Positions 8,786 through 16,023 of a stretch of DNA of 64,000 nucleotides are shown one piece after another. A program made the translations under genes and the position numbers. This DNA comes from Patescibacteria group bacterium. GTDB taxonomy: Bacteria; Patescibacteriota; WWE3; UBA101185; 2-01-FULL-41-18. Numbering within the stretch: position 1 is the first letter of the stretch; every line of letters begins with the position of its first letter. The notes beneath the pieces are model-generated. The model was not told the DNA's origin, did not search any database, and worked only from the letters and a program-made list of their open reading frames with translations. The stretch lies in the NCBI GenBank assembly GCA_038064575.1, contig JBBTST010000001.1, forward strand, positions 99,650 to 163,649, written 5' to 3'.

Positions 8786-10158
8786 GGCGCAAGCCTGTTA
8801 AGATCTCTAGGAAAGAGCGTAGCTTCCTTGACGTTGTTAAGACCTATTAGCTTTTGTGTCAGCCTTTCAAGTCCCAGACCTCCGCCTCCGTGACTTGGCA
8901 TCCCATATTTGAAGGCTTGTAAAAAGTATTGGTAACCCGGATCCTCAAGATCTCCCCCAAAATCAACCAGTTGTTTCACAATGTTAGCATAGCGGTGTTC
9001 TCTCCTACTGGTAGTGATAATTTCAACACCTCTAAAAATCAAATCCGCTCTTTCTGTAACTTCAGGGTTTGTCTCACTTCTAAAGTGGTAAAACTTCATG
9101 TGACTTGCCGGAAATTCCGTAATATAAACCGCTTCGCTGCCCCAGTGCTTTGCAGAATACTCACAAATGAATCGTTCCTCAGAAGGAGTAGGATCTTTTT
9201 CTTTTCTAAAATCCTCTCCTTTTTCCTTTAGATAAAGCTCATGCAGGTCTTTCATGGTAATTTGTGGTAACTCCTTTTTAAGAATTGGCTTTTCTGCTTT
9301 GAGCAGACTTAATTCCTTTTCATGAGTTTCCCACACCCGCTCACATGTAAAGTAGATTAACTCACCAAGTAGGGTTAATACATCCTGAAAGGCATTTATA
9401 AAGCCCATCTCAAAATCTATTGAAAGATACTCGGTCATGTGCCTTGTGGTGGAACTTGGTTCGGCTCTGTACGCTGCTCCAAACTCATAAACTCTTTCAA
9501 GAGACCCTACCATAATTTGCTTATAAAACTGAGGTGATTGGGCCAAAAACGCGCTTTTCCCAAAGTAGTCCAGTTTAAAAACCTCAGCACCTCCCTCAGT
9601 AGCCTGAGCCAAAATTTTAGGACTGTGAAATTCTGTAAAATCATTGGCTTTCAGAAATTCTCTGATTGCTTCTCCCACACCTGCCTGCACTTTCCAGATA
9701 CCTTGCTCCGTTACATTTCTCATGTTTACTATCTTGTTATCAAAGAGACTTTCAAGGTTTTCCGGTTTGTGATCTATTGGTTTGTCTATTTCTACAGGTG
9801 AGACATACTCAACAGGAACAACAACCGTAACTTTTGGCTTTCTAATTTCAACTCCAAGCTCGACTCTTTTTTCTTCTACCACGTCTCCTTCAACCAACAA
9901 AATAGTACCCGCATACAAACCCTTTAATTTTTCTGCTTCTTCCGACTGCTCATCAACTACCTGCACAAGCCCGCCCCTGTCTCTAATGACCAGAAAGGTC
10001 ATGCCTCCAAGCTCCCTCTTTTTGTGAAGCCACCCATAAATTTTTACTGTTTTTCCTACGTGCTTTGGAAGCGCAGTAGAAAGAACCCTTGGTGTAAACT
10101 CCTTAACTGTTGGTGTTTTTTTCATAAATAACTTTCTTAGCAAATAAACTTGGTGCAA
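8782..10158 (-). CDS. aspS: aspartyl-tRNA synthetase, archaeal/eukaryotic type (type 2)
   Basis: Class II motifs FRAE and GGGGLGLERL; motif-1 region FLAQSPQFYKQ matches AspRS type 2; N-terminal OB domain. The likely true start is an internal MKKTPTVKE near 10125. Confidence 0.8.
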   Translation of the reverse strand: MHQVYLLRKLFMKKTPTVKEFTPRVLSTALPKHVGKTVKIYGWLHKKRELGGMTFLVIRDRGGLVQVVDEQSEEAEKLKGLYAGTILLVEGDVVEEKRVELGVEIRKPKVTVVVPVEYVSPVEIDKPIDHKPENLESLFDNKIVNMRNVTEQGIWKVQAGVGEAIREFLKANDFTEFHSPKILAQATEGGAEVFKLDYFGKSAFLAQSPQFYKQIMVGSLERVYEFGAAYRAEPSSTTRHMTEYLSIDFEMGFINAFQDVLTLLGELIYFTCERVWETHEKELSLLKAEKPILKKELPQITMKDLHELYLKEKGEDFRKEKDPTPSEERFICEYSAKHWGSEAVYITEFPASHMKFYHFRSETNPEVTERADLIFRGVEIITTSRREHRYANIVKQLVDFGGDLEDPGYQYFLQAFKYGMPSHGGGGLGLERLTQKLIGLNNVKEATLFPRDLNRLAP

Positions 10159-11109
10159 TCAGGATGAGCCAGAATCAAGAAAGTCGCTGAAAAAAGCGGC
10201 TTTTTTGTTTGCTTAACTTTCTCTCTACCCCTTACTTCAAAATTTATTACTAAATAAAAAACCCGACCTGCGCCGAGTGGTTTCAAGTTCTTATGCTGCT
10301 AAACAACTGAAAGGTGCCAACCTACTTTATACTTAATTGACAGCTGTAACGGGCATTCCCGCTTTGTTTTACTCTCCCAAAATAGTAGGATTGGGATTTC
10401 TCCAAAGAGCTCAAGGGTGTCACATTCCCTGTCTAAGCTTTTTAAAACTATACAGTTGTAATATCAGATTTTTGTGGTGGGCGCAATAGATAAAAAGGAA
10501 AGGAGCCAGCAAGCTTAAGATTTCAAATGATCAATAATTTGGATCAATGAAAGAAATCTTAGAAACAGCTTGTCTGGCTCCAATAAGTTCTGGGTGACCC
10601 ACGAGGGTCTAGTTCGAGGGTCACCACAGTGAGACGAGGAGCTACGGGATGGCGGCGGACGGCAGATGCGGGAACCGATCAGGAATCGGGAGTGGCATTG
10701 TCGTAACCTCCTTTCCTTAAGTAGTCCAGTCGATAAGGATAAATTTATCACTTTTAAATTTTGATGCAAGAGGCAATTTTGGGGACAAAAACCACTATCC
10801 CTAAAAGGGTTATTAAAAGTTTGCTATTTGGGGTCAAACGGTTGGTTGATCCGGAAATATCTCTTGGGAGCGTTTTCCGGACCAACCGCTAGGAGTGGGT
10901 TAACTACGATATGGGCTCATGCCCGAGTGCCGCTTCCTGGTCCATTCTTCCGTCTGTGCATTACGGAAACGGATGAACCGGAAACGGCGAGTTGGGAATA
11001 AAGCTCGTCTTCATAGTTTACCCTCCTTTCAAATTAGACATTATCAAAATAGCTTCACTGGTGCAATAAGAAAAGAGACATGCAACAAAACTTATAAGTT
11101 AAAGGTGTG

Positions 11110-11170
11110 AAAAAAAGATTCGGGCCATCGAACAGTAGGAGTCCTCAAGGGAAGCTCTGTTCGATGGCCC
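11110..11170 (-). terminator. Rho-independent terminator of the M24 peptidase gene
   Basis: Perfect 14-bp stem GGGCCATCGAACAG/CTGTTCGATGGCCC at 11122-11135 / 11157-11170; on the minus strand it is followed after 5 nt by T7. Confidence 0.5.
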
Positions 11171-11290
11171 TACCGCCACGTCATCAGTTCAAGTTAGGAA
11201 AGTTATGCATAAATGCCTCCTTTCTCTAAAGAAACCGTGACATGCCAAACTTATAGTAGCAGAAATTTGCGTTTCACAAAATCGGAATTT

Positions 11291-13291: not shown

Positions 13292-13325
13292 GAAAACAAA
13301 AAAGCTCGGGATTTGATTCCGAGCT
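13292..13325 (-). terminator. Rho-independent terminator (minus strand)
   Basis: On the minus strand, AGCTCGG/CCGAGCT 7-bp stem followed by TTTTTTGTTTTC. Confidence 0.45.
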
Positions 13326-13510
13326 TGTAAAAGTTAATCAATACAAAAACGGAATCACACACCGAGCTTTATGTGATGTCTATACCAAGTGGCTATTGAA
13401 GTGAGTTTGAATACTGTTTCTCCCATGCAAGGGCAGATTACCAAAATATCACTTGGGCGTCAACCACCAAGCCCTCTATACTAATTCACCATCTACAGAC
13501 CACTCCCACA

Positions 13511-13564
13511 TAAACACAAAACCAAAAACAAAGACCCGACTTATCGTTTGAGATAAATCGGGTC
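13511..13564 (-). terminator. Rho-independent terminator (minus strand) ending the candidate sRNA
   Basis: On the minus strand, GACCCGA(TTTATC...GATAA)TCGGGTC composite stem followed by TTTGTTTTTGGTTTTGTG. Confidence 0.45.
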
Positions 13565-13717
13565 AGCCAATAAAAAAGGTACTTGCAAAGGTACAGAACC
13601 CCTTTTACTTTTTTGCGGGGTGTGCCGGCTTAAACCCTTCAGGAAAAGCTTACGCTCTTCAAGAGGGTCCTCCGGGCACAAGAGCCCGCTTTGGGAAAGG
13701 TTGGAGATTCGGTTCGC
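13515..13717 (-). ncRNA. candidate ~200-nt structured sRNA (rod-like fold; 6S-like or novel)
   Basis: Bounded by a sigma70-like promoter and a terminator. 5' and 3' ends form a perfect 11-bp closing helix (plus 13707-13717 cctttgcaagt / plus 13581-13591 acttgcaaagg) with further nested helices. No ORF. Confidence 0.3.
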
Positions 13718-13723
13718 CTTTGC

Positions 13724-13752
13724 AAGTAGTGTCTTTATAGGATTTGTCAAAA
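13724..13752 (-). promoter_or_regulatory. sigma70-like promoter (minus strand): TTGACA-17bp-TATAAA
   Basis: Reverse complement of plus 13747-13752 is TTGACA; reverse complement of plus 13724-13729 is TATAAA; the spacer is 17 nt. Confidence 0.4.
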
Positions 13753-13782: not shown

Positions 13783-14175
13783 TTAAGTTTGCGTTTCTTT
13801 CAAAATCAGGGTTTTTCCATCTTTCTCATCTTCCACTAACACAAGCACCCAACCGCGCCCGCTAATCTTATATGTATCACCATCTCTTATAACGCAAAAG
13901 CCCAGAGGGCCAACAATTCTTCCCAAAGTATTTATTACAAACTCAAACTGCCCGCTTAAAACCAAACAGGACTCTTTTCTACCCACATCCTTTGCCATCT
14001 TTACTTCTTCCGGATACTTTCCACCTGTCATCCTGACAATAGCAAAATACTTACTCAATCCAAAAGGTCTCACAACCCAAACTACAGAACCACCACTCAA
14101 CTCATATTTTTTTATGAAAGAATACATAGTGATCTTCTCCTTTAGCAAATTAGGCTTTTCTGAAAAAAGCCTCAC
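13783..14175 (-). CDS. hypothetical protein (possibly cupin-like beta-barrel)
   Basis: 130 aa with no diagnostic motif recognised. Confidence 0.35.
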   Translation of the reverse strand: MRLFSEKPNLLKEKITMYSFIKKYELSGGSVVWVVRPFGLSKYFAIVRMTGGKYPEEVKMAKDVGRKESCLVLSGQFEFVINTLGRIVGPLGFCVIRDGDTYKISGRGWVLVLVEDEKDGKTLILKETQT

Positions 14176-15472: not shown

Positions 15473-15790
15473 ACTTCCATTTAAATACCAATTAGTTACA
15501 AAAACAACCAAAGCAAAATAAACACCTTTTTTCAAAGATGCTTGGATTGAAGGGCTACCAGCAAGTGCAAACCTTAAGGCTAACACTTTTGACCTGGACC
15601 CCTTCAATCCCCGCTATTCATGCTTTGCAACTCCCCAAAAATCACAAAGCACATTTACTTTTTAAAGCCCTCGTTTAAGCCTTTTACATTAGCGTTCTCC
15701 CAAACAAAATGCATGTGAAGAACTGGTATAAGACTTTCCCCTTATGCTTTTGGTGCCCCGACCATTTTGATCGGAAATTCTTCCAACTAA

Positions 15791-15814
15791 CAAAAAAATC
15801 CGCTTGTAAGCGGA
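15791..15814 (-). terminator. Rho-independent terminator downstream of recJ
   Basis: ATCCGCT-TGTA-AGCGGAT hairpin flanked by an A7 run (plus) / T7 run (minus). Confidence 0.5.
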
Positions 15815-16023
15815 TTATTGTTGGTTGTAAGCTAAAAAGCTAAGAAAAGGCTTAGCCCTTTAGTCTACAACCAACCTTAATAAAGAGTCTGTAACAAGCA
15901 GCCACTCCACCCAAGGTTGGGAGTTTGACATTGTGCATTGACTTGTTCCAAGTTAGTAGACTCTTCATATAGTTTTCAACTTAGGTAAATTTAACAAACA
16001 GTAAAAAATGTGTCAACTGCTTT

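Follow-up and report, generated by a model that had tools for sequence, protein, structure and literature searches.

Does the short intergenic region between an M20 and an M24 peptidase gene of an uncultured groundwater bacterium specify a small regulatory RNA and, if it does, to which kind of RNA would it belong? The question arises in a 64-kb stretch of DNA (the window, to which all coordinates refer) from the metagenome-assembled genome GCA_964357935.1 of uncultured Hainich groundwater Patescibacteria. There, flanked by the M20 gene upstream and the M24 gene downstream, lies a promoter-to-terminator unit of ~160-210 bases whose elements are all on the minus strand, and which a sequence-only reading had described as a self-contained small RNA (sRNA) candidate folding into a rod that might be 6S-like. 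Our analysis supports the sRNA candidate in silico through the z-score of the predicted fold, its rank within the window, the lack of a coding signal and a unidirectional terminator; all the elements that had been described exist, small coordinate errors aside. On balance, we lean towards the candidate being a genuine functional structured RNA of some kind, and we infer that it is transcribed and acts as RNA. An orphan, lineage-specific sRNA is a plausible description, reached computationally from one sequence of a single species and without conservation support. If real, it would be among the very few candidate regulatory RNAs described for Patescibacteria, bacteria with tiny genomes for which, to our knowledge, almost no RNA biology is known from experiment.

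A predicted rod between a promoter-like site and a terminator

The promoter-like site occupies 13762-13734 (TTGACA at 13762-13757, a 17-nt spacer and TATAAA at 13739-13734) and starts 20 nt past the stop codon of an orphan open reading frame (ORF) upstream; it had been noticed before, at coordinates (13724-13752) that were 10 nt off. Transcription is predicted to start near A13727-A13730, and the first helix of the predicted fold begins 5-6 nt downstream of TATAAA. The pattern TTGACA-N16-18-TAWAAW has a single match in the window, the one at the candidate. Sigma-70-like promoters appear to be used in this lineage, since the neighbouring conserved leader likewise carries such a promoter (TTGACG-17-TAATCT/TATAAA).

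Downstream of this site, the 149-nt core (13728-13580) is predicted to fold into one unbranched rod of 53 pairs (28 G-C, 20 A-U and 5 G-U), laid out as a 21-bp closing arm, a 14x12-nt centre and a 29-bp apical arm, rich in G+C and ending in a GUAA tetraloop of the GNRA type. The closing arm brings the two ends together. Its 5′ strand (13728-13704, RNA nt 1-25) comprises UACUUGCAAAGG (13728-13717), AC and GAAUCUC (13710-13704), and its 3′ strand (13602-13580, nt 127-149) comprises GGGGUUC, GU and CCUUUGCAAGUA (13591-13580). The perfect terminal complementarity claimed earlier is real: ACUUGCAAAGG (13727-13717) pairs with CCUUUGCAAGU (13591-13581), and a flanking U-A pair extends this closing helix to 12 bp (13728-13717/13591-13580), with a pairing probability (P) of ~1 in every context tried, given the full 5′ end. 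The end coordinate then assigned to the element, 13717, cuts off the 5′ strand of this helix. Among the helices that had been nested inside it, GCGGG/CCCGC (P about 0.98-1.0) and GUGCC(C)GG/CCGGCAC are strongly predicted, whereas GAACC/GGUUC and CCUUU/AAAGG reach only 3-9% probability and the fold prediction prefers a GAAUCUC/GGGGUUC register (P 0.63-0.96).

The apical arm (13689-13615, nt 40-114) stacks GCGGG/CCCGC, UGUGCC-GG/CC-GGCACA, GGACCCUC/GAGGGUUU and GAAGAGC/GCUUUUC below the GUAA loop (13653-13650), and its helices recur in every fold context, including read-through from upstream. Between the two arms, the 5′ side of the centre is the C/U-rich, anti-Shine-Dalgarno-like CAACCUUUCCCAAA (13703-13690, nt 26-39) and the 3′ side is the A-rich AAAAAAGUAAAA (13614-13603, nt 115-126). 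The minimum-energy fold places a weak 4-bp helix across this centre, with small loops on either side. Since forcing all 26 nucleotides (nt 26-39 and 115-126) to be unpaired costs only 0.7 kcal/mol (-62.7 vs -63.4), the centre is, in the folding model, effectively a 14x12 bubble of marginal stability.

The predicted stability of the whole is exceptional. The minimum free energy of the 149-nt core, -63.4 kcal/mol, compares with -41.1 +/- 3.8 for dinucleotide shuffles (z = -5.85), and 0 of 200 shuffles were as stable. When 4260 segments of 150 nt from the window were folded on both strands with correction for G+C content, segments overlapping the candidate ranked 2nd and 9th (top ~0.2%). The minus strand is also the favoured one: the promoter-like site and the U tail of the terminator both lie on it, its fold has the better z (-5.85 vs -3.93 on the plus strand), and there are 5 G-U pairs against 1 A/C opposition.

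Past the closing helix comes a linker (13579-13565, CC-UUUUUU-AUUGGCU) whose U6 tract (13577-13572) lies 2 nt beyond the helix; transcription may already terminate there, which would leave an RNA of roughly 155 nt. It is followed at 13564-13520 by the intrinsic terminator that had already been recognized, GACCCGAUUUAUC-UCAAAC-GAUAAGUCGGGUC and then the UUUGUUUUUGG tail. The hairpin (13564-13533; 13 pairs, 6 of them G-C, and a loop of 6) has the G+C-rich stem and the immediate U tract of an intrinsic terminator, would act on the minus strand only, folds in every context tried, read-through included, and would yield an RNA of ~200-210 nt.

The candidate reads as non-coding. By inspection it has no AUG, and its sole long frame is a 73-aa ORF with a TTG start (13762-13541) that begins within the -35 box. 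A coding reading of this frame was tried and set aside: it returned 1 match in 1.84 billion representative proteins, a 1458-aa repeat protein aligned through a 23-residue stretch that recurs ~10 times, and this match was judged spurious. Pfam, PHROG and PADLOC have no family for the 73-aa ORF, and ARAGORN found no transfer RNA (tRNA) or transfer-messenger RNA. The earlier statement that no ORF with a Shine-Dalgarno site lies inside is nearly right, the exception being a GGAGGA-N5-UUG mini-frame of 7 codons that can be read inside the apical helix.

These features suggest the following model of a minus-strand non-coding unit. Because a promoter-like site stands at the start of the helix, the fold is very stable, a U tract follows the helix and a strong unidirectional terminator follows in turn, we favour a transcribed, structured non-coding RNA. 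Transcription would most likely initiate from TTGACA-17-TATAAA, near 13727-13730; read-through from the upstream operon of the M20 peptidase and the orphan ORF would be a second source, made possible by the lack of a terminator between the orphan ORF and the candidate. Transcripts would end at the U6 after the closing helix or at the terminator (13564-13533), at roughly 155 nt or 200-210 nt. The RNA would form an irregular, unbranched rod with its ends joined by the closing arm and a bubble that is C/U-rich on its 5′ and A-rich on its 3′ side. Since pairing takes in nearly all nucleotides outside the bubble and locks the two ends to each other, a role as a protein-binding scaffold seems likelier than that of a classical multi-hairpin base-pairing sRNA. 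The closest structural analogue would be 6S RNA, an open-promoter mimic that docks in the RNA polymerase holoenzyme, the 5′ strand of the bubble then serving as template for a short product RNA.

Possible alternatives: operon end, base-pairing regulator or DNA palindrome

The same elements can be put together in other ways. The ends of the element form an inverted repeat of 25 nt (80% identity, with a perfect 12-nt core) that covers both the -10 box and the U tract, and lets CCUAUAAAG, a stretch with the -10 box in it, match the UUUUUUAUUGG tract as its complement. When 296 nt are folded as a read-through transcript, the rod is retained and the extended part of the inverted repeat pairs too (z = -5.37). 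Together with the absence of any terminator from the stop codon of the orphan ORF (13783) to the rod, these observations feed the view that the rod is the structured 3′ end of the upstream operon and not an independent gene, with the closing helix plus U6 and then the hairpin working as a tandem terminator and a block to 3′ exonucleases, and the apparent promoter being in part the A-rich partner of the U tract. A similar unit after the recJ stop codon (~16016-15793) fits in with this, and the genome may tend to place long hairpins where genes end. We nevertheless judge this view unlikely: a 149-nt, 53-bp rod is far larger than termination or protection of the 3′ end would call for, and a strong canonical terminator comes next in any case; moreover, TTGACA stands exactly 17 nt from TATAAA, at the sole such site in 64 kb, which pairing between an A tract and a U tract does not require. 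The two accounts do not exclude each other. sRNAs derived from 3′ untranslated regions (UTRs) are common, and since no terminator intervenes and the repeat extension forms in read-through transcripts, the rod must double as 3′ end of the M20/orphan operon, and the sRNA and 3′-end readings are compatible.

A different use of an independent RNA would be to act in trans, the C/U-rich 5′ strand of the bubble or the single-stranded linker pairing with ribosome-binding sites of targets and repressing their translation. As expected of such an sRNA, the unit is non-coding and comes with a promoter and a terminator of its own, and its accessible C/U-rich stretch complements ribosome-binding sites of the GGAAAGG/AAAGGAGG type upstream of neighbouring small ORFs. 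In addition, UUCCCAAAG of the bubble (13689-13697) is the perfect 9-nt complement of a site at 13928-13920 in the orphan-ORF mRNA; by our estimate, however, ~1 such 9-nt match is expected by chance in 700 nt. When 82 translation-start regions of the window were screened by a crude calculation of duplex energies, the best value was -43.0 kcal/mol; shuffled versions of the RNA did as well or better (mean -44.3), and the screen is uninformative on targets. The seeds of typical base-pairing sRNAs are exposed, at the 5′ end or in a hairpin loop, whereas a closed rod leaves little topological freedom for pairing out of an internal loop. We regard trans-acting base pairing as doubtful, and about on a level with the operon-end account.

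The near-palindromic character of the core raises the further alternative of a DNA-level element without RNA function, that is, a solitary palindrome or remnant resembling a miniature inverted-repeat transposable element (MITE) or an enterobacterial repetitive intergenic consensus (ERIC) element, inserted between the orphan ORF and the conserved leader. Terminal inverted repeats of the kind expected are present, as described above; the full 149 bp are palindromic, if imperfectly, and give a good fold on the plus strand too (z = -3.93); relatives have neither the candidate nor the orphan ORF at the corresponding position; and a TA dinucleotide can be read on both sides of the CTTGCAAAGG/CCTTTGCAAG core. 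Against an inserted element, the sequence is single-copy in the window plus ~15 kb of flank, no related sequence turned up in IMG/VR, in phage and plasmid collections or in one Joint Genome Institute (JGI) metagenome pattern scan, and inspection revealed no target-site duplication around the 25-nt repeat. Finally, the arms are identical at 52 of 84 positions when aligned as a palindrome, and because the G+C-rich helices are kept despite many insertions and deletions, symmetry at the level of RNA fits better than symmetry at the level of DNA. We consider a purely DNA-level element very unlikely.

Searches for relatives, and the neighbouring units

To place the candidate among known RNAs, the window was scanned with cmscan against all 4227 families of Rfam 15. 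At gathering thresholds only a tRNA elsewhere in the window was found, and nothing for the candidate with the 6S and other models that the sequence-only reading had pointed to, either at these thresholds or, on the 241-nt segment, at E<=10. Matches to mir-296, MIR405 and HTH-XRE at E<=10 were rejected as chance-level hairpins. The HTH-XRE match (13561-13605, plus strand) scores 16.9 bits against a gathering score of 49.8 bits (E = 0.76), with CUUGCAAAGGU common to it and the closing-helix sequence, and is probably due to chance. Diverged RNAs of the Candidate Phyla Radiation (CPR) can escape Rfam: standard thresholds missed RNase P RNA in 10 of 35 circular CPR genomes (PMC8172020). For this reason the Rfam negative is not absolute, yet nothing scores even far below threshold. 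In the literature searched, we found no report of 6S RNA or of 'CPR-specific sRNAs' for this group.

The nearest relatives were represented by six loci, L005, L007, L006, L069, L068 and L067, whose M24 peptidases are 58, 55, 52, 49, 48 and 48% identical to that of the window, respectively. About 7-21 kb was visible per relative, and ~79 kb of the candidate's own genome (the window plus ~15 kb of flank). In L006 and L069 other genes occupy the position of the candidate and of the orphan ORF, which makes both, as far as these sequences tell, lineage-specific at this site. Blastn, nhmmer and covariance-model searches returned no second copy of the candidate in the window and its ~15 kb of flank.

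Beyond the relatives, a bubble-flank pattern, CCCAAAGCGGG-N50-80-CCCGCAAAAAAG (23 bases), had 0 matches in IMG/VR and 3 in JGI metagenomes, all unrelated and read as chance. A closing-helix pattern had 54 matches in IMG/VR, all of them unrelated phage sequences and, on a rough estimate, about as many as chance would give. About 15 IMG/VR phage contigs from one metagenome (3300045988), among them L010, L012, L017, L028, L030 and L037, have in common a 160-bp segment between 14-nt inverted repeats, TTGCAAAGGTACGA...TCGTACCTTTGCAA; these segments share the closing-helix core, fold weakly and have no relation to the candidate. In phage and plasmid records, blastn produced no match below E = 0.2. 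A pattern scan of the genome collection with the neighbouring leader, intended to reach syntenic loci, yielded only two chance terminators from Bacteroidota.

Several of these results, and some from the sequence itself, weigh against a functional RNA. No 6S, signal recognition particle (SRP), T-box or riboswitch match appeared at E<=10 on either 1.6 kb or 241 nt. Across 5.7 kb around the candidate, the four available contigs of the species, which come from samples named Hain_H41, show 100% identity and offer no variation in which covariation could be sought. The candidate was not found in the six relatives' loci, either with nhmmer or with a single-sequence covariance model (R1) run with filters off; L006 and L069 keep the adjacent leader and its promoter while other genes take the syntenic position. 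From a housekeeping RNA such as 6S one would expect conservation, although only ~7-21 kb of each relative was visible. The strand asymmetry of the fold is modest. The promoter pattern taken alone is within chance and not significant (0.35 matches expected in the window, and 27% of shuffles with at least one), its position directly before the helix being the notable part, and its TATAAA may be a mere A-tract partner of the terminator U tract. If these points are pressed, and the fact that several nearby intergenic stretches are also unusually structured is added, one arrives at a neutral structure, stable by chance in a G+C-enriched intergenic stretch, with no demonstrable conservation of any kind and no function. 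This too we consider very unlikely, given the shuffling result (0 of 200; z = -5.85) and the coincidence of the helix start with the expected transcription start and of the helix end with a U tract and a strong terminator.

The candidate is one of several noteworthy features along this strand. The orphan ORF upstream (13783-14175, minus strand; 130 aa, or 114 aa in the form 13783-14127) has no relative among the species genomes of GTDB and finds only itself among 5.8 billion proteins; it belongs to no Pfam, PHROG or PADLOC family, and its AlphaFold single-sequence model, all-beta with a predicted local distance difference test (pLDDT) score of 44.8, is unusable.

The candidate is followed immediately downstream by another promoter-to-terminator unit, the leader mentioned above (13295-13470, minus strand; TTGACG-17-TAATCT), with an RNA of roughly 135 nt. 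Its terminator consists of AAGCUCGG-AAUCAAAUC-CCGAGCUU and then a U tract. The unit is conserved in L006 (9285-9460) and L069 (1590-1765), the relatives with M24 identities of 52% and 49%, and the terminator stems and U tract are identical in the window and in both relatives, the loop alone varying. In all three it precedes the same operon, made up of a proline-rich mini-ORF, a small membrane protein, a zinc-ribbon mini-protein and the M24 Xaa-Pro peptidase. Alternative pairings can be drawn in this leader: AGCUCGG occurs twice, GAUUCCG can pair with CGGAAUC, and there is one compensatory change in L006 (GACUCCG/CGGAG). Its only Rfam matches are weak ones of the Trp_leader/L20_leader type, and it resembles a cis-regulatory attenuator or riboswitch-like leader that fits no established class.

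On either side of the M24 Xaa-Pro aminopeptidase gene, the minus strand carries several proline-rich mini-ORFs that have strong Shine-Dalgarno sites (13172-13095, 11014-10961 and 10697-10641). They would encode MTNYPNRPYPVHPPTRPEWPVTDVR, MKTSFIPNSPFPVHPFP and MPLPIPDRFPHLPSAAIP, and have counterparts in the same position in relatives, MTYPSYRPAYPPPARP... in L006 (~9580-9650) and MFNHPPSRPTSRPE in L069 (~1990-2035). Their products may serve as leader peptides, sensing proline or translation stalling, or may be proline-rich substrates that the adjacent peptidase processes. Two of them are interleaved with several of the most stable 150-nt folds of the window in the G+C-enriched 1.1 kb that separate the M24 peptidase gene from the Asp/Asn-tRNA synthetase gene (~10440-11250, both strands), where G+C content reaches 0.50 and no Rfam family matches.

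A third unit of similar organization lies right after the recJ stop codon (~15793-16016, minus strand; TTGACA-17-TAAATT, ~200 nt). Within it, GGUUGGUUGUAG...CUUACAACCAAC form a long imperfect hairpin, after which comes the terminator AAUCCGCUUACAAGCGGAUUUUUUU. Segments at 15481-15930, a range that takes in the start of the M20 peptidase gene too, belong to the most structured of the whole 64 kb. The recJ-end unit has no sequence similarity to the candidate.

Comparison with known RNA systems

Two classes were considered and set aside for this locus. A riboswitch or other cis-regulatory leader is disfavoured by the terminator that follows the candidate and by the separate, conserved promoter that comes after it; there is no Rfam match, and in L006 and L069, where the downstream operon is conserved, the candidate does not precede it. 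A retron msr-msd was rejected as well: inverted repeats are present, but there is no reverse transcriptase, the neighbours being the M20 and M24 peptidases, the orphan ORF and mini-ORFs.

Other systems share part of the architecture. Like SRP (4.5S) RNA, the candidate is a hairpin-like rod with paired ends and an apical GNRA tetraloop (GUAA); however, no SRP covariance model matches it at E<=10, and beside the tetraloop we see none of the symmetric and asymmetric loop motifs that mark domain IV, judged against the Escherichia coli 4.5S sequence. With ERIC, Correia and MITE elements it has in common a ~150-bp imperfect palindrome, terminal inverted repeats and a location in a transcribed intergenic region. 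It differs from them in being single-copy in ~79 kb, absent from every collection searched and without a target-site duplication. It resembles 3′-UTR-derived sRNAs and tandem terminators in that it comes directly after a stop codon with no terminator between, and in its ends of hairpin plus U tract, one of them canonical; unlike these, it has a near-consensus promoter-like site of its own, and its 53-bp rod far exceeds any terminator hairpin.

The most suggestive likeness is to 6S RNA, described as a rod of ~160-200 nt in which the 5′ and 3′ ends pair into a closing arm and a loop caps the apical arm, with imperfections in both arms (PMC8876501). The earlier label of a 6S-like rod holds for the predicted shape, with its two imperfect arms around a thermodynamically open 14x12-nt centre, and does not extend to Rfam, where no 6S family matches. 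As far as prediction goes, the candidate has the closing arm of 5′ and 3′ ends, the imperfect, loop-capped apical arm, the intergenic location and the sigma-70-like promoter; its centre of ~14x12 nt may correspond to the large, little-structured bubble of 6S RNA, although the minimum-energy fold partly closes it by a weak 4-bp helix. It departs from 6S RNA in scoring against no 6S covariance model (RF00013 and related), even at E<=10, in measuring 149 nt from helix to helix, at the short end of the size range, and in not having been found in the visible parts of related genomes. True 6S RNA binds the sigma-70/sigma-A holoenzyme, and synthesis of the product RNA on it sets off its refolding and release. 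When a 14-nt block on the 5′ bubble and adjacent 5′ strand was used to mimic a product RNA, alternative pairings became iso-energetic, either a shift of register or, across the 3′ bubble, a hairpin of ACCCC with GGGGU, which is weak evidence.

Modelled as it is, the resemblance to 6S is one of shape and not of membership, for which covariance models provide an objectively testable standard and give no score here. By analogy, a 6S-like mechanism in which the RNA acts as a decoy for RNA polymerase seems rather improbable, though a little less so than the more specific proposal that the rod is a highly diverged 6S-type polymerase-binding RNA of a CPR lineage that current 6S covariance models miss. 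If the 6S-type reading were true, global control of RNA polymerase by an RNA decoy would extend to this radiation, and the candidate would provide a seed sequence for finding more such RNAs.

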